From positions 1 through 62,684 of the forward strand of contig JAICEW010000002.1 in assembly GCA_025923995.1 (NCBI GenBank): a DNA stretch of 62,684 nucleotides, in the 5' to 3' direction. Made by a program: the position numbers and the translations under genes. Numbering within the stretch: position 1 is the stretch's first letter; every line of letters begins with the position of its first letter. This DNA comes from Vicinamibacteria bacterium (GTDB taxonomy: Bacteria; Acidobacteriota; Vicinamibacteria; Fen-336). Shown here piece after piece: positions 17,568 through 58,400 of this stretch. The notes beneath the pieces are model-generated. The model did not search any database. It worked only from the letters and a program-made list of their open reading frames with translations, and was not told the origin of the DNA.

Positions 17568-17647
17568 CGTCGGACCGTCTGCGCGCCGTGCTCGCTGCCC
17601 CATGGTGTCGTCGTCTCCCGGGCGGCCTTCCGGGCCCCCCTCAAGCC

Positions 17648-17680
17648 AAAAAAAAACCCCCGAGGTCTCTTCCTCGGGGG
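17648..17680 (-). terminator. Intrinsic terminator of the ilv attenuator
   Basis: Perfect 9-bp stem CCCCCGAGG/CCTCGGGGG, 6-nt loop, followed by 9 T on the minus strand. Confidence 0.9.
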
Positions 17681-17706
17681 CTCCTTCGATCTCGCTCTCG
17701 CGCTTC

Positions 17707-17820
17707 CTAGATCAGGGAACCCCCGGACGGTCCAATGGAGATGGCCCGCAGGACCAGGACCGACAGTCGAACAGCGACGTTCGATTCGGAGGCAGCGCGG
17801 ATTCGAGAGAGATGCGTCAT
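17707..17820 (-). CDS. ilv operon leader peptide (37 aa, MTHLSRIRAASESNVAVRLSVLVLRAISIGPSGGSLI)
   Basis: Manually translated ORF rich in Val/Leu/Ile, lying between a promoter and the terminator upstream of ilvB. Confidence 0.8.
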   Translation of the reverse strand: MTHLSRIRAASESNVAVRLSVLVLRAISIGPSGGSLI

Positions 17821-17833
17821 CGACGTTCGCGCG

Positions 17834-17862
17834 AAGTTACGCGTCGGGTAAACGAGAGTCAA
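17834..17862 (-). promoter_or_regulatory. Sigma70-type promoter of the ilv leader
   Basis: TTGACT (17862-17857), 17-nt spacer, TAACTT (17839-17834). Confidence 0.65.
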
Positions 17863-17895
17863 GTGAATTCTGCTTCTGCGCGTCATGCCCGCGCG

Positions 17896-18594
17896 TCATG
17901 CCAGGTCGAAGACGAGCACCTCGGCGTCGCTGGTGGCCTCGAGCTGCAGCGCCCGCTCCTCGCTCACCGCCGCGCCGTCGCCCTCGCCCATCTCGGCCTC
18001 GTTGAGCGTGACCGATCCCCTGGCGACGTGAACCCAGGCATGGCGCTTCTCGCCCAGGGGACGCGACCGCCTCTCGCCCGCGCCCATCCGCGTCACCTCC
18101 AGCTCCAGGTCCTGCTGGACCTGGATCGAGCCGTTGCGGCCGTCGCGCGAGGCCAGGAGGACGAAGCCGCGCCGGGCCGCCTCCGGGTCGAACGCCTTCT
18201 GGTCGTACCGCGGAGGAAGTCCGCGCCGGTCGGGGATCACCCAGATCTGCAGGAAGTGCACGGGCTCGACGTCCGAGCCGTTGTACTCGCTGTGCGTCAC
18301 GCCGGTCCCCGCGCGCATGAACTGGATCTCGCCGGGCCGGATCACGCCCCCGCCGCCGGCCGAGTCCTTGTGCTTGAGCGAGCCCTCGAGCACGTACGAG
18401 AGGATCTCCATGTCGCGGTGCCCGTGCGTCCCGAAGCCCGCGCCCGGCTCCACGCGGTCGTCGTTGATCACACGCAGGGAGCGGAAGCCCTCGAAGCGCG
18501 CGTCGTAGTACTCGCCGAACGAGAACGTGTGGCGGCTGTCGAGCCACCCCCACTCCGTCCGTCCCCTGTCGTCCGCCCGCCGGATCTCGATCAT
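17896..18594 (-). CDS. Pirin family protein (YhhW-like)
   Basis: WLDSRHTFSFG, LRVINDD, HGHRDMEILSYV, GTGVTHSE, FLQIW. Confidence 0.93.
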   Translation of the reverse strand: MIEIRRADDRGRTEWGWLDSRHTFSFGEYYDARFEGFRSLRVINDDRVEPGAGFGTHGHRDMEILSYVLEGSLKHKDSAGGGGVIRPGEIQFMRAGTGVTHSEYNGSDVEPVHFLQIWVIPDRRGLPPRYDQKAFDPEAARRGFVLLASRDGRNGSIQVQQDLELEVTRMGAGERRSRPLGEKRHAWVHVARGSVTLNEAEMGEGDGAAVSEERALQLEATSDAEVLVFDLA

Positions 18595-21141: not shown

Positions 21142-21185
21142 CTCCGGAACCTCCTGAGGCACGTTCTCCAGGCCCCGGAAAGGCC

Positions 21186-21220
21186 AAAAGGCCCGTCCCG
21201 GGTGTCTTCGGGAGCGGGCC
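21186..21220 (-). terminator. Terminator hairpin of the phe attenuator
   Basis: 11-bp GC-rich stem with one bulge (21190-21200 / 21209-21220), then TTTT on the minus strand. Confidence 0.7.
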
Positions 21221-21255
21221 TCGCGTTTGCGGCCACTTCAGGCTGGGGCGACCGG

Positions 21256-21333
21256 CTAGGCCTTCCCCCCACCCGCTCCGTTGGAGCAGGTAAACAGGAA
21301 GAACCGGACGTTCCACTTCGCCTTCGGGACCAT
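21256..21333 (-). CDS. pheA leader peptide (25 aa, [25 protein letters not shown])
   Basis: Manually translated; Phe cluster TTC TTC CTG TTT; located upstream of the terminator and pheA. Confidence 0.8.
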
Positions 21334-21342
21334 GAGGCCCCG

Positions 21343-21372
21343 AGTATAGGCCCTCGAGGCACCCGGCGGCAA
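21343..21372 (-). promoter_or_regulatory. Putative promoter of the phe leader
   Basis: TTGCCG (21372-21367), 18-nt spacer, TATACT (21348-21343). Confidence 0.5.
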
Positions 21373-21407
21373 CATCGGTGTATAGTTGAATGAGAGGTCA
21401 TTCACTT

Positions 21408-23306
21408 ATGGCAGAGCAGGCGCCGTCGCACGCCACCGAGCGCGAGTCCCGGCAGGTCGCGGAGGCCTCGCGCCAGGCCGAGTGGGAGAAGCCCAGCTTC
21501 ATGCGCGAGCTGTTCCTGGGCACGCTGCGGATGGATCTCATCCACCCCTTCCCGCTGCCCGGGACGGAGCGGCCCGAGTTCCGCAGCTTCTTCGAGAAGC
21601 TGGTCCGCTTCCTCCAGGAGGAGGTGGACCCGGTCACCATCGACACCACCGGCGAGTACCCGGCGCACGTGGTCGACGGCCTGCGCCGGCTGGGCGCGTT
21701 CGGCATGAAGATCCCCACCGCCTACGGCGGCCTCGGCTTCACCAACGTCGAGTACAACCGCGTGATGACGCTGCTGGGCAGCTACGAGGGGAACCTCTGC
21801 GCCCTGCTCTCCGCGCACCAGTCGATCGGCGTGCCCCAGCCGCTCAAGCTGTTCGGGACCGAGGAGCAGAAGAAGAAGTTCCTCCCCCGCTGCGCCGCGG
21901 GCGAGATCTCCGCGTTCGCGCTGACCGAGATGGACGTGGGCTCCGACCCCGCGCGCATGTCCACGACGGCGGTGAAGACGCCGGACGGCGCCGCGTACGT
22001 GCTGAACGGCACGAAGCTGTGGTGCACGAACGGGACCATGGCGAAGCTGCTGGTCGTCATGGCCACGGACCCGAAGACGAAGAAGATCTCGGCGTTCGTG
22101 GTCGAGACCGACTGGCCGGGCGTGACGGTCGAGCATCGCTGCCGCTTCATGGGCCTGCGCGCGCTGGCCAACGCGGTCATCAGCTTCAAGGACGTCCGCG
22201 TGCCGGCGGAGAGCCTGATCGGCGCGGAAGGCCGGGGGCTCAAGATCGCGCTCACCACGCTCAACGACGGCCGCCTCTCGATCCCGAACACCTCGGTGGG
22301 CACGGCCAAGTCGTGCCTGGCCATCGTCCGCAAGTGGGCCGCTGAGCGCGTCCAGTGGGGACGCCCGGTCGGCAAGCACGAGGCGGTCGCGCACATGATC
22401 GCGGACATGGCGGCGCGCACGTTCGCCATGGAGTCGGTCGCGAACCTGGCGACCGAGATGTCGGACCACAAGGGCTACGACATCCGCCTGGAGGCGGCCG
22501 CGGCCAAGGAGTGGAACACGTTCCGCACCTGGGAGATGGTCGACGACACGATGCAGATCCGCGGCGGGCGCGGGTACGAGACGGAGTCATCGCTCGCCTC
22601 GCGCGGGGAAGCGCCCATCGGCGTCGAGCGCATGATGCGCGACTACCGCATCAACAAGATCTTCGAGGGCTCGACGGAGATCATGCACCTGTTCATGGCC
22701 CGCGAGATGGTGGACAAGCACCTCGCGGTCGCGGGCGACCTGATCGATCCCGACAAGGGGTTCGGCGCCAAGCTGGGGGCGCTGCCGGGGATGGCGGCGT
22801 TCTACGCCTGGTGGTACCCCACGCGCTGGCTGGGCTGGGGCTTCTGGCCGCGCTTCTCCTCCTTCGGTCCGCTGGCCGGCGACCTGCGGTTCGTGGACCG
22901 CGCCGCGCGGCGGCTGGCGCGCGCCAGCTTCCACGGCATGCTGGTCTACCAGGCGAAGCTGCAGAACAAGCAGGCGTTCCTGTTCCGGTTGGTGGACATC
23001 GCGAACGAGCTGTTCGCGATGGCGGCGTCGCTCTCGCGCGCGGAAGCGCTGCGCGCCTCCGGCTCGCCGCAGGCCGCGGAAGCGCGCGACCTGGCGCTGC
23101 AGTTCTGACGCGGCGCGCGGCGGCGCATCAAGGCGCTCTTCCGCGACCTGTGGAGCAACGACGACACGGAGCGGTATCGCACGGCCGCTGACGTCCTGAA
23201 GGGCCGCCACGTCTGGCTCGAGGGCGGCATCATGGCGCACCAGCCCGCGCCGGCCCAGGCGCCGCGGAGCACGGAGCCGGCGTCCGAGACCGCCGGGGTG
23301 GCTTAG
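21408..23306 (+). pseudogene. Acyl-CoA dehydrogenase with in-frame TGA at 23106-23108 (nonsense allele, sequencing error or readthrough)
   Basis: SAHQSIG, AFALTE..GSD, LNGTKLWCTNG, GRGYE, RINKIFEGSTEIM; frame continues after TGA as RGARRRIKALFRDLWSNDD...WLEGGI to TAG 23306, 3 nt before the next gene. Confidence 0.7.
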
Positions 23307-54972: not shown

Positions 54973-56111
54973 GCGACCACCCCCAGGCCGCGCAGCGCTT
55001 CGACGTCGCGCGCGTCGTAGCCCAGCTCGGCCAGGACCTCGCTCGTGTGCTGGCCCAGGGCGGGCGCCGGACGCTGCGGACGGACCGGGGTTCCGGCCAG
55101 CGTCACCGGCGTCGCGACCGTCCGCAGCCAGCCGTCGCCGCTGGGCTGGTCGAGGAACGCGCCGGCGGCCGCGCCCGTCGCCTCGAACGCGTCGAGCACG
55201 GGCTCGACGCACGCGTCGATGCCGGAGAGGTCGCGCAGCCACTCGTCGCGGTCCCGGGACGCGAAGATCGCGCGCACCTCGTCGAGCGTGCGCTCGCGCG
55301 GGCCGTCGCCCTCCCACTGGCGGCCGACCAGGTCGTCGCGGCCCAGGCGGCGCACGAGCGCCTCCCAGAACTTCGGCTCCAGCGCGCCCACCGTCAGGTC
55401 GCGGCCGTCGCGGCAGCGGTAGACGTTGTAGCAGGCGTGCGTGCCCGACAGCTCGCTCCGCTCCGCTCCGCCCGCGAGGCGGCGCGCCAGCGGGACCGTC
55501 ATCAGGGCCAGCACCGAGTCGCGCAGCGAGATGGTGACCGCCTGCCCGCGGCCGGTCCGCTCGCGGGCCTGAAGGGCGGCCAGGATGCCGATCACGGCGC
55601 TCAGCGCCCCCGTCATGTCGGCGACCTGGGCCTGGGGCAGCACCGGCTCGCCGTCGCGGCCGCGGTTGCCGTCCAGGAAGCCACCCACAGCGGCGTAGTT
55701 CACGTCGTGCCCGGCGCGCACGTCGTCGGGGCCGTACCCGGTGATCGAGCAGTAGACCAGCCGCGGGTTCTCGGCGGTGAGCGCGGGAGCATCCAGGCCG
55801 CGGCGCGCGAGGACGCCCGGACGGTAGCTCTCGACCAACACGTCGGCGCGGGCCGCCAGCCGGCGCACGACCTGCGCGCCGGGCTCGCTGCGCCAGTCGA
55901 GCAGCACCGAGCGCTTGTTCCGGTTGAGCGCCGCGTGCAGCGCGGCGTCGCCGCCCACGGCCGGCGGCGTCACGCGGGTGGGATCGCCGACGGGGCCGTC
56001 CTCGACCTTGACCACGTCCGCGCCCAGGTCGCCCAGGACGAGCGTCGCGTAGGGCCCCGGGATGTATCTCGTCAGGTCCAGCACCCGCAGGCCCGCGAGG
56101 GCGCCGGTCAC
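54969..56111 (-). CDS. CaiB/BaiF family (class III) CoA-transferase
   Basis: LAGLRVLDLTRYIPGP, LNRNKRS, ADVLVESYRPG, GHDVNY, APALGQHT. Confidence 0.93.
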   Translation of the reverse strand: MTGALAGLRVLDLTRYIPGPYATLVLGDLGADVVKVEDGPVGDPTRVTPPAVGGDAALHAALNRNKRSVLLDWRSEPGAQVVRRLAARADVLVESYRPGVLARRGLDAPALTAENPRLVYCSITGYGPDDVRAGHDVNYAAVGGFLDGNRGRDGEPVLPQAQVADMTGALSAVIGILAALQARERTGRGQAVTISLRDSVLALMTVPLARRLAGGAERSELSGTHACYNVYRCRDGRDLTVGALEPKFWEALVRRLGRDDLVGRQWEGDGPRERTLDEVRAIFASRDRDEWLRDLSGIDACVEPVLDAFEATGAAAGAFLDQPSGDGWLRTVATPVTLAGTPVRPQRPAPALGQHTSEVLAELGYDARDVEALRGLGVVA

Positions 56112-57403
56112 CGTTCGAGCACCATCGCGAAGCCCATGCCGCCCTGCGCGCAGACCGAGAGGAGCCCGTAGCGCGCGTCGCGGCGCGCCATCTCGTTGGC
56201 GAGCGTCGTCGTGATGCGCGCGCCGGTGGCACCGAAGGGATGCCCAACCGCGATCGAGCTGCCGCAGACGTTGAGACGGTCTTCGTCCACCCGGCCGACC
56301 GGCTCGGAGCGGCCCAGCTTCGTGGCCCACTCCTTCGACTCGAGCGCCTGGACGTTCGAGGCCACCTGGGCCCCGAACGCCTCGTGCATCTCGATCAGGT
56401 CCATGTCCGCCAGCGTGAGGCCCGCGCGCGCGAGCGCGCGCGGGATCGCGATGCCGGGGCCCATCAGGAGCTGCCCGCCGGGATCGACCGCGGCCGTGGC
56501 CCAGGCGCGGATGAACGCGAGCGGCGTGACGCCTTCGGTGCGCGCCCGCTCCTCCGAGATGAGGAGCACCGCGGCCGCGCCGTCGGTCAGCGGGGACGAG
56601 TTGCCCGCCGTGACCGTGCCGTACTTGCGGTCGAACACCGGCGGCAGCCTGGCCAGCGCCTCCATCGACGCGTCCGCGCGGATCAGGTTGTCGGAGTCGA
56701 TCACCTGGTCGTAGGTCGGCGGCAGGAGCACGTCGCACATCTCGGCCCGCAGGCGGCCGTCCGCGAACGCCCTGGCCGCGTTCAAGTGGCTCCGCAGCGC
56801 GATGCGGTCCTGGGTCTCGCGCGAGATCCCGTTCTCCTTCGCCATCTTCTCGGCCGACTGGCCCATCGTCAGGCCGGTCGACGGCTCCGCGATCGCGGGC
56901 GTGTCGGGGACGAGGTCCCGCGGACGGATGCCGGCGAACGCCCTGATCCGGGCGCCCAGGCTGCGCGCCTTGCTGGCCTCGACCAGCGCCCGCGCCATGC
57001 GCTTGCCGTGCAGGATGGGAACGTCCGAGAGGCTCTCGGCGCCGCCCGCGATCCCGATCTCGACCATCCCCGACCCGATCGCGAACGCGACGTCGGCGAT
57101 CGCTTCGTTCGCGGACGCGCAGGCCCGGTTCACCGTGTAGCCCGGCGTCGACATCGGGAGGCCCGTGCCCAGGACCACCTCGCGGCCCAGGTTGGGGGCC
57201 TTGGCCGAAGGGATCACCTGGCCCATCACGACCGTCTCGATGGCTTTCGGGTCGATTTCCGTGCGCTCGACCAGCTCCCTGACGCAGGCCTTGGCGAGGT
57301 CCAGTGCGGTCAGGTCGCGATAGGCGGTCCCGGCTTTGGCGAATGGGGTCCGGCACCCGGCGAGGATGGCCACGCGGCCCCCGCCGTGGTTCACGGGTGG
57401 CAC
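56108..57403 (-). CDS. fadI: Acetyl-CoA C-acyltransferase (thiolase)
   Basis: RTPFAK, TVNRACAS, TAGNSSPLTDGAAA, MHEAF, GHPFGATGAR, CAQGGMG. Confidence 0.93.
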   Translation of the reverse strand: MPPVNHGGGRVAILAGCRTPFAKAGTAYRDLTALDLAKACVRELVERTEIDPKAIETVVMGQVIPSAKAPNLGREVVLGTGLPMSTPGYTVNRACASANEAIADVAFAIGSGMVEIGIAGGAESLSDVPILHGKRMARALVEASKARSLGARIRAFAGIRPRDLVPDTPAIAEPSTGLTMGQSAEKMAKENGISRETQDRIALRSHLNAARAFADGRLRAEMCDVLLPPTYDQVIDSDNLIRADASMEALARLPPVFDRKYGTVTAGNSSPLTDGAAAVLLISEERARTEGVTPLAFIRAWATAAVDPGGQLLMGPGIAIPRALARAGLTLADMDLIEMHEAFGAQVASNVQALESKEWATKLGRSEPVGRVDEDRLNVCGSSIAVGHPFGATGARITTTLANEMARRDARYGLLSVCAQGGMGFAMVLER

Positions 57404-57468
57404 TGGTCGATCTTATCCCAACGCCCGGGGGGCGGTGGGTGACCTGCGACATACCCCCCGGGGCGTCC

Positions 57469-57497
57469 TTGACACGGGCTTCCGGCGGGCCGATCAT
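57469..57497 (+). promoter_or_regulatory. Sigma70-type promoter of a Cys-rich sORF
   Basis: TTGACA (57469-57474), 17 nt, GATCAT (57492-57497). Confidence 0.65.
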
Positions 57498-57503
57498 CGA
57501 GCC

Positions 57504-57593
57504 GTGACGGGTTTTGCTTCGGCCGGCGTGGTTTCGATGTGCGCCTGTTGTATGTGCGCCAGGGCCACCGGCCTGCCGGAGGACGTCGGGTAG
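57504..57593 (+). CDS. Candidate Cys-rich leader peptide (VTGFASAGVVSMCACCMCARATGLPEDVG; alternative ATG 57537)
   Basis: GTG at the predicted +1; 4 Cys and 2 Met within 7 codons; followed by terminator. Confidence 0.6.
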   Translation: MTGFASAGVVSMCACCMCARATGLPEDVG

Positions 57594-57626
57594 CAAGCCC
57601 GCAAGTCCAATCCGGCACGGACCTTA

Positions 57627-57659
57627 GGCCCTTCGATCGATCGAAGGGCTTTCGTGTTT
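57627..57659 (+). terminator. Terminator hairpin after the Cys-rich sORF
   Basis: GCCCTTCGAT/ATCGAAGGGC stem followed by TTTCGTGTTT. Confidence 0.7.
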
Positions 57660-57802
57660 CTGGGGCTCGTTTCTGAGGGGCCCGGGGAGGTGCGCGAGAG
57701 AAGGTCGCATGGACAGAGGAAGGTTCGTCGGAGGCGGCCTGTGCGGCAGGTCGTCTCGTGAAGGGAGGGGCCACGGCCCCTCCCTTTATACTTGGCGCCT
57801 GC

Positions 57803-58291
57803 ATGAAGCAACGCGACCTGCTGATCGGCGCCGGCATCGTCCTTCTCCTCGCGGTCGGGGTGGTCCGGCTGGCCGTTCCCGACCGGTCCCGGATCCGGCC
57901 GATCTCGATCGAAGGGTTCGAGATCAAGAGCGAGCGGATCGACCCCGGCCAGACCGTGACCCGCGAGCTGCCCTGGAACCCGCCCGACGACATCTACGTG
58001 ATGGGCTGGAACCCCTACCTGGGCGCGCCGTCGGACGCGAAGTACGACGCGGACATGATCCTGTTCCACCCCGACCGCCAGACGACCGTGTTCATCACCG
58101 GCTACCGCGTCTCGCCGCCCGCCTCCACGGACGCGTGGCGCTTCTACAGCCTGCCGCCCCACACCGGGTTCCTGCTGCGCAAGGGCGAGCGGCTCGTGCT
58201 GCGCTACCGGATCTCGAACACGGGCGCGGCGTCCTTCGAGACCAAGGGCGCGACCGCCCTCGTGTACTTCGTGCCGGTCGCCGGCAATTAG
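57803..58291 (+). CDS. Hypothetical membrane-anchored beta-sandwich protein
   Basis: N-terminal TM helix, good codon usage, TATACT at 57787-57792. Confidence 0.75.
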   Translation: MKQRDLLIGAGIVLLLAVGVVRLAVPDRSRIRPISIEGFEIKSERIDPGQTVTRELPWNPPDDIYVMGWNPYLGAPSDAKYDADMILFHPDRQTTVFITGYRVSPPASTDAWRFYSLPPHTGFLLRKGERLVLRYRISNTGAASFETKGATALVYFVPVAGN

Positions 58292-58323: not shown

Positions 58324-58400
58324 GCGCCCGTAGCTCATTTGGATAGAGCAGCTGGCTTCGAACCAGCAGGTGGGGAGTTCGAATCTCTCCGGGCGCGCCA
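58324..58400 (+). tRNA. tRNA-Arg(UCG)
   Basis: 77-nt cloverleaf, stem GCTGG/CCAGC, loop CT-TCG-AA, CCA. Confidence 0.93.

Follow-up and report, generated by a model that had tools for sequence, protein, structure and literature searches.

A possible free-standing cysteine-codon attenuator with a non-coding RNA tail in Vicinamibacteria

What would a cysteine-codon attenuator regulate if no gene of cysteine metabolism followed it? The question is raised by a short region in a 62,684-nt stretch of DNA from Vicinamibacteria bacterium (assembly GCA_025923995.1, contig JAICEW010000002.1, positions 1 to 62,684 of the forward strand; hereafter referred to as the window), in which a promoter, a small open reading frame (sORF) rich in Cys codons, an intrinsic terminator and a second hairpin are packed between positions 57469 and 57792. 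A preliminary description, made from the sequence alone, had proposed a leaderless cysteine-responsive attenuator that was either orphaned by a deletion or acted on a gene for an uncharacterised membrane protein behind it. The reading of this element (the module) that we favour, tentatively and in the knowledge that it may well prove wrong, is that of an autonomous leaderless attenuator sensing the charging of Cys-tRNA, which would regulate a conserved non-coding RNA tail rather than a protein gene.

All features of the module lie on the forward strand. The promoter (57469-57497) consists of TTGACA (57469-57474) and GATCAT (57492-57497), separated by 17 nt; it scores 10 out of 12 and is the sole promoter-like match in 1.6 kb, with 0.1 expected. 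Six nucleotides after the -10 box, a GTG at 57504 opens a 29-codon sORF (MTGFASAGVVSMCACCMCARATGLPEDVG, 57504-57593) that ends with TAG (57591-57593) and contains Cys codons at 57540-57542, 57546-57551 (two codons, starting at 57546 and 57549) and 57555-57557. It is followed by the intrinsic terminator T1 (57626-57662), made up of a stem-loop (57626-57651) with 11 pairs, six of them GC, and a T-rich tail giving a U-rich tract. These elements, like the second hairpin further on, were found where the preliminary description had placed them. The 85-amino-acid stop-to-stop frame holding the sORF matched no called protein.

Contigs of relatives were obtained via homologues of two neighbouring proteins, a 162-amino-acid membrane protein and a thiolase. 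The layout was found again in six further distinct Vicinamibacteria (Acidobacteriota) sequences, giving seven complete copies in three lineages, all from one part of Vicinamibacteria: the window together with L005, L006, L088 and L089 (the window clade), L001 (identical to L002 and counted with it as one sequence) and L013, a Vicinamibacteria metagenome-assembled genome (MAG). A partial copy, L091, which runs from the hairpin H1 introduced below to the end of the module, brings the number to eight where T1 or the tail is counted. The DNA is represented in numerous metagenomes from soil and roots; nhmmer profiles built for the module and its tail, run on the 92 sequences collected, detected no further copies. 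Rfam covariance models, applied at E values up to 5-10 to the window and six related loci, matched tRNA alone. The organism itself is uncultured.

In all seven sequences TTGACA is invariant, with a -10 box 17-18 nt on, and an invariant GTG stands 6-7 nt past that box, preceded by a spacer of variable sequence. The transcription start predicted from this geometry would make the sORF leaderless in every copy. Conservation of the Cys codons was likewise borne out by the relatives: each of the seven sORFs holds three to five of them in frame, within four to eight codons and at codons 10-18, and each includes a run of CC or CCC. Outside this cluster, the peptides (MTGFATAGVACVCACCMCARATGLPEDRG in L088, MTGFIAAGVVRMCACCRCARATGLPEGIG in L089, MTGFAMTGVSQMCACCMCTGATGLPDGIG in L005, MMYFVSTGGLTPCGCCMCTGATGLPEGIG in L006, MTRSHGGRACTCCCRSMPRGAAGGARRSSS in L001 and MIRFQHMHRRPCCCPKGPSVRP in L013) are unconserved between lineages and have lengths of 22, 29 and 30 amino acids. 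A C-terminal ATGLPEGIG is kept inside the window clade, where it coincides with the stem of H1. Strain variants in soil metagenomes carry the N-terminal changes G>D, V>A and S>L, and one strain shows a stop-to-stop change from TAG to TAA. Between CC and C, relatives have M, R or L, and metagenome strains have L or R in place of the Met; sensing of Met, which the preliminary description had entertained alongside Cys, finds no support, since this codon varies. Sensing of Arg, tied to a neighbouring tRNA-Arg gene, was discarded since the Arg codons are not conserved. The peptide was also considered as precursor of a ribosomally synthesised and post-translationally modified peptide and as type I toxin; both ideas were dropped, the former for want of modification genes and of conservation in the peptide, the latter because hydrophobicity is lacking in the peptides of L001 and L013.

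These patterns speak for translation of the frame and for selection acting on its Cys codons, because GTG is invariant at the predicted transcription start, because Cys codons are in frame in three lineages with a spacing that differs by multiples of three, and because TGT and TGC interchange within the cluster (L013) and the stop codon is preserved. Across the 29 long open reading frames (ORFs) of the window, Cys is encoded by TGT once versus 62 times by TGC, as compared to two TGT among the four Cys codons of the window sORF and one to three among the three to five Cys codons of the sORFs in general. Codon bias in the same 29 ORFs is extreme (TTT 4 vs TTC 282, AAT 4 vs AAC 141), so that T-ending codons are worth noting when they turn up in small ORFs of this genome. 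For the leu leader of Salmonella, it is known that attenuation becomes sharper when control codons are rare. In Acidobacteria, ~13% of genes are reported to be leaderless (PMC3160421).

RNA folding added an element to the scheme of the preliminary description, namely hairpin H0 (57521-57573), the putative anti-antiterminator, which carries the Cys codons at its tip and the segment AGGGCC (region 1, 57561-57566) in its 3' arm. It is present in the minimum-energy fold of all seven sequences. Region 1 is common to H0 and to the proposed antiterminator, in which it would pair with GGCCCT (57627-57632) in the 5' arm of T1; every sequence keeps GGGCC unchanged behind the Cys codons, though L013 reads it in a different frame. 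The pairing of TGCCGGA (57574-57580) with TCCGGCA (57611-57617), suggested earlier as part of a nested antiterminator, was confirmed as a complementarity and is predicted to form the base of hairpin H1 (57574-57617), whose loop starts with the stop codon and which the antiterminator would enclose. H1 was seen in the folds of all seven sequences, with the stop codon in or beside the loop and with differing stem sequences. T1 has a GC-rich stem of 10-11 bp and a U-tract in 8/8 copies, its stem GGCCCUUCG/CGAAGGGCC being nearly invariant and its loop variable, and the segment after the Cys codons is complementary to its 5' arm GGCCCUUCG. The idea of a leaderless Cys-codon leader with terminator and antiterminator alternatives thus withstood the comparison, given that GTG, Cys cluster, stop-codon hairpin and T1 are kept in seven sequences. 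Formal pair counts were confined to the window clade, because MAFFT misregisters L001 and L013: 93% of the H0 cells and 84% of the H1 cells are paired, vs 25-49% when the partners are slid, and each hairpin has one compensatory pair (GC to AU in H0), a modest support, given that one of the compared sequences had served to derive the structure.

The antiterminator comprises 12 bp in L001, with an energy of -27.3 kcal/mol that was matched by none of 500 shuffles (mean -14.8, standard deviation 2.3), and 9 bp in L013, matched by 6% of shuffles. Nascent RNA was then folded with an imposed ribosome footprint. A ribosome placed on the first Cys codon leaves the post-Cys segment paired with the 5' arm of T1 in 7/7 sequences; one placed on the stop codon yields no antiterminator in six of the seven. 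The arrangement of H0, antiterminator and T1, as read from the sequences, fits the three-state logic of a classical leader-peptide attenuator.

Beyond T1, 110-135 nt up to a second terminator, T2, are conserved as part of the unit. Recent orphaning by deletion, one of the two earlier explanations for the absence of a target, is at odds with this conserved stretch, which measures ~130 nt. The tail opens with a small hairpin (C, 57662-57683), recovered in local folds of five sequences at a place where the alignment is gappy. There follows the predicted single-stranded motif CCCGGGGAGGTGCGCG (57681-57696), within which GGAGGTG (57686-57692), ~30 nt past T1, is invariant in all eight copies and resembles a ribosome-binding site; the tail also holds a purine-rich stretch. 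Hairpin A (57731-57757) has an invariant loop, TGCGGC (57742-57747), on stems that covary between lineages (GGCGGCC/GGUCGUC, GGGCGGCC/GGGCCGCC, GAGGCCG/CGGCCUC and GGGGCCG/CGGCCCC). This loop and the GGAGGTG motif are the best-conserved parts of the tail. T2 (57761-57792) is the second hairpin of the preliminary description, a GC-rich stem-loop (hairpin B, 57761-57786) that abuts a TATACT -10 box (57787-57792); it has a true U-tract in L001 and L013, and hairpin B is missing solely in L006. The interval from T1 to T2 is devoid of conserved ORFs. The idea of a second ORF behind GGAGGTG was rejected, since no start codon stands at a suitable distance and the lineages have no frame in common, as was that of a minus-strand ORF (57624-57710), which is not conserved. 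RNA spanning T1 was apparently present in one soil sample: a 171-nt metatranscriptome contig, 95% identical, covers 57536-57704, crossing T1 into the tail, and is the sole near-identical metatranscriptome piece in the 20 kb around the locus.

The gene that begins directly behind T2 encodes the 162-amino-acid membrane protein (57803-58291, forward strand) and lies outside the unit. Its ATG (57803) is located 10 nt past TATACT, and a TATACT/TATAAT-like -10 box precedes the ATG by 9-12 nt in every copy of the gene. An 84%-identical homologue (L003) adjoins a TetR-type gene and has just ~90 nt upstream of it, without the module, and more distant homologues have upstream gaps of ~100 nt that lack the module as well. 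Conversely, tRNA-Arg comes immediately after the module in L013, and no protein gene stands between them. Because it has its own promoter, and because gene and module each occur without the other, the sequence comparison indicates that the 162-amino-acid gene is not the regulated target of the module, contrary to the earlier suggestion that it might respond to Cys or Met. Since the module controls no protein gene, its output is probably RNA.

Under the reading preferred here, positions 57469-57792 would form a self-contained transcription unit giving an RNA of ~290 nt. Transcription would start at the G of the GTG at 57504, and a 70S ribosome would begin translation directly on the 5' end. When the ribosome is absent or has moved on, H0 (57521-57573) would hold AGGGCC, T1 would form and an RNA of ~155 nt would be released. 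When Cys-tRNA is scarce, the ribosome would stall at the first Cys codons (57540-57548), which are partly the rare TGT, and cover the 5' arm of H0, thereby freeing AGGGCC, while H1 folds. Pairing of the freed AGGGCC with positions 57627-57632 of the T1 5' arm, in a helix stacked on H1, would then block T1, and RNA polymerase would continue through hairpin C, GGAGGUG and hairpin A to T2. When Cys is plentiful, the ribosome would reach the stop codon in H1 and melt this hairpin, H0 would re-form behind it and T1 would terminate transcription. The tail made by read-through could act in trans as a riboregulator, and the short RNA ending at T1 may have a role of its own.

That the organism uses leader-peptide attenuation follows from two further leader ORFs in the window, both on the minus strand and both ahead of biosynthetic genes: a Phe leader (…RFFLF…) at 21150-21420 and an Ile/Leu/Val leader (…VAVRLSVLVLRAISI…) at 17620-17900. 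Each has a promoter and a strong terminator, followed within ~40 nt by a ribosome-binding site and the biosynthetic gene.

Several results weigh against an attenuator with an RNA cargo. The antiterminator of the window clade comprises 6-7 bp and is no better than in shuffled sequences, 20-36% of which match it; the window's own pairing of AGGGCC with GGCCCT, put forward in the preliminary description, exists as a complementarity, but 20% of shuffles equal or beat its 6 bp. The nested antiterminator as a whole therefore stands out from chance in L001 but not in the window clade. In the model, a ribosome at the third or fourth Cys codon blocks the antiterminator. T1 forms in every modelled state at equilibrium, and equilibrium folding cannot tell the states apart because T1 always wins, an outcome that would be expected for a switch decided kinetically. 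The sORF has a GC content at third codon positions (GC3) of ~79%, vs 85-99% in genes, and this value, taken with an invariant UGUUG, would be compatible, too, with an RNA motif that is not translated. In one metagenome variant (run X30), a change from TGT to CGT has removed a Cys and left C-A-C-R-L-C. The RNA evidence consists of one low-depth contig that carries no strand or end information and might reflect DNA carry-over. There is no cysteine or sulfur gene near the module, for which the preliminary description had seen no obvious sulfur target, and no cysS in the window region or the related loci. Among 15 thiolase loci in Vicinamibacteria/Acidobacteriota genomes, the module adjoins the thiolase gene in just one, and it is absent within 2.5 kb of the other 14. 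Finally, the tail has no known target.

These points leave room for other explanations. A constitutive small gene that senses nothing, with T1 and T2 as successive terminators and a small RNA (sRNA) and/or a Cys-rich, for instance metal- or redox-active, micropeptide as product, is an unlikely alternative that nonetheless deserves to be taken seriously: the unit has its own promoter and terminators with no regulated gene after it, its RNA is detectable in a metatranscriptome where neighbouring genes are not, and ATGLPEGIG is kept within the window clade. However, the peptide is unrelated between lineages outside the Cys cluster and varies in length, the C-terminal conservation overlaps the stem of H1, and a simple gene needs neither H0 nor the shared GGGCC segment. 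Another alternative is an untranslated structured sRNA, with an incidental frame and with UGUUGY at the H0 tip serving as a loop motif that pairs or binds a protein. Low GC3, conservation of UGUUG at the nucleotide level and the resemblance of H0, H1 and T1 to a typical multi-hairpin sRNA are in keeping with it; yet it leaves unexplained why GTG is invariant at the predicted +1 behind a variable spacer, why Cys triplets stay in frame with GTG in three lineages at distances differing by multiples of three, and why the changes that occur include the TGT/TGC interchange of L013 and the strain with TAA for TAG. We regard it as improbable.

The two remaining alternatives retain the attenuator but differ in its cargo. 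In an ordinary Cys attenuator, read-through would pass a weak T2 into the 162-amino-acid gene and tRNA-Arg. The T2 of the window clade does have a poor T-tract that merges with the next -10 box (TTTATACTT), and the order of module, gene and tRNA-Arg recurs in five sequences. Against this stand the gene's own -10 box and its lack of any conserved ribosome-binding site by which it could be translated from a long transcript, the absence of the module at the 84%-identical homologue and all more distant ones, the L013 locus without the gene, and the strong T2 of L001 and L013; moreover, the protein contains no Cys and has no recognisable link to sulfur, and a Cys sensor ahead of tRNA-Arg lacks an evident logic. 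Such an arrangement thus appears rather unlikely. Alternatively, the attenuator might be a functionless relic that lost its Cys operon in the ancestor of the clade, with GGAGGTG as leftover ribosome-binding site. The position of this motif ~30 nt after T1 and the absence of any target would agree with a relic, but motif and hairpin A loop persist across lineages that have thiolases only ~72% identical to that of the window and diverged spacers; decay would be expected of a neutral relic, and we give this explanation little credence.

A more specific version of the preferred attenuator with an RNA cargo, which we consider very improbable as it stands, is an sRNA gene gated by Cys-tRNA charging, in which read-through under Cys scarcity adds a trans-acting tail with an exposed mimic of a ribosome-binding site and a conserved loop. 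GGAGGUG would then serve as 7 nt complementary to the usual 3' end of 16S rRNA. Such a tail could pair with CCUCC-type inhibitory sequences in mRNAs related to sulfur or coenzyme A (CoA), for example that of the neighbouring thiolase operon; alternatively, it could be a decoy for the 30S subunit in an organism that mixes leaderless genes and genes with ribosome-binding sites. If this is true, a leader-peptide attenuator would serve as sensor domain in a riboregulator that acts in trans.

To our knowledge, leader-peptide attenuators, which are textbook switches, have always been described as front ends of amino-acid operons, and Cys versions have so far been reported only in mycobacteria, where they are translational, and as a predicted motif before cysS of Rhodobacterales. 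Like trpL of Escherichia coli, hisL and leuL of Salmonella and the Phe and Ile/Leu/Val leaders, the module has a short promoter-proximal ORF with clustered control codons. As in these, three mutually exclusive pairings are predicted (H0, antiterminator and terminator), the stop codon is sited such that a terminating ribosome would disrupt the antiterminator, and rare control codons are used. It differs from them in its predicted leaderless start, in its proposed sensing of Cys, in an antiterminator that encloses an extra hairpin (H1), and in having a non-coding tail and a second terminator instead of a co-transcribed pathway or other protein gene.

Closer in its sORF is the 'Cys ribulon' of mycobacteria, a set of attenuators with leaderless polycysteine sORFs (Canestrari et al., bioRxiv 10.1101/834739; Mol Microbiol 2020). 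Common to both are a 5' GUG start, predicted in the case of the module, consecutive Cys codons, an otherwise unconserved peptide and the proposed stalling when Cys-tRNA is scarce. All cases of the Cys ribulon head operons with cysteine-related genes, and the single one examined closely works at the level of translation, where it releases a ribosome-binding site from sequestration (10.1101/834739). In contrast, the module belongs to another phylum (Acidobacteriota), has an intrinsic terminator after the sORF and a GGAGGTG with no ORF behind it, and is followed by no cysteine gene; around it lie a divergent thiolase operon and either tRNA-Arg or the gene of the jelly-roll membrane protein. Actinobacterial leader peptides that contain Cys runs and lack a terminator were described as early as 2005 (PMC1262725). 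In uORFC-8-2, the cysS leader of Rhodobacterales, tandem Cys codons lie in the first of two stems, ahead of a terminator with a U-run, and ribosome-mediated Cys attenuation has been proposed (PMC8632094). The module shares Cys codons in a first stem ahead of a terminator; however, uORFC-8-2 always precedes cysS and was not described as leaderless, and no sequence relation between the two was found. A precedent for trans-acting RNA derived from an attenuator is rnTrpL of Sinorhizobium, the leader released by termination at an attenuator under whose control trpE(G) remains (PMC6614838). In both systems the RNA resulting from the termination decision may itself be the regulator, but the attenuator described here appears free-standing and its candidate regulator would be the read-through tail. 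The preferred reading, if true, would provide a conserved free-standing Cys-codon attenuator whose cargo is solely non-coding RNA. Ribosome stalling could then be the sensor for an RNA regulator, just as some riboswitches gate small RNAs, and leaderless sensory mini-ORFs would extend to an abundant, little-studied soil phylum. SreA and EutX/Rli55 are further regulatory RNAs made by attenuators or riboswitches. Should the module be a relic or a plain small gene instead, it would amount to a minor point of annotation.

The 162-amino-acid protein has 66 homologues, all metagenomic; it has no Pfam match and lacks Cys. A search with it found no relative in genome contigs and two loci in metagenome contigs. 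Its AlphaFold model (predicted local distance difference test score, 89) combines an N-terminal transmembrane helix with a jelly-roll beta-sandwich that gave generic fold matches only, and it revealed no link to sulfur or metal. The tRNA-Arg(TCG) gene (58324-58400) lies 3' of the membrane protein gene in the window; in all lineages (window, L013, L089, L091 and L006) it keeps its place downstream of the module, with the 162-amino-acid gene between them in some.

On the opposite strand, the thiolase gene (56108-57403) heads a beta-oxidation-type operon with genes for a family III CoA-transferase, a FadB-like enzyme and an acyl-CoA dehydrogenase. The nearest thiolase loci in named genomes belong to Vicinamibacteria MAGs, at 70-76% identity. 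The thiolase gene looks leaderless as well, with TAAGAT followed after 6 nt by GTG (57401-57415, minus strand), and the same is seen in L005. Between the divergent promoters of thiolase gene and sORF lies the box GCGACATAC (57446-57454, forward strand), which occurs in the window, L005, L006, L088 and L089 and is replaced by the related GCGCCATAG in L001; it may be a binding site for a shared regulator. In a Gemmatimonadales MAG (L026:1382-1510), a 12-codon ORF (MAGSSQCCCCKK) precedes the orthologous thiolase gene by ~100 nt on the same strand and is followed by a long imperfect palindrome of GTGAGAA/TTCTCAC repeats and then by GGAGAAGC-ATG. A poly-Cys leader serving the thiolase operon is a possible role for this ORF, the lone instance among ~65 loci from outside Vicinamibacteria.

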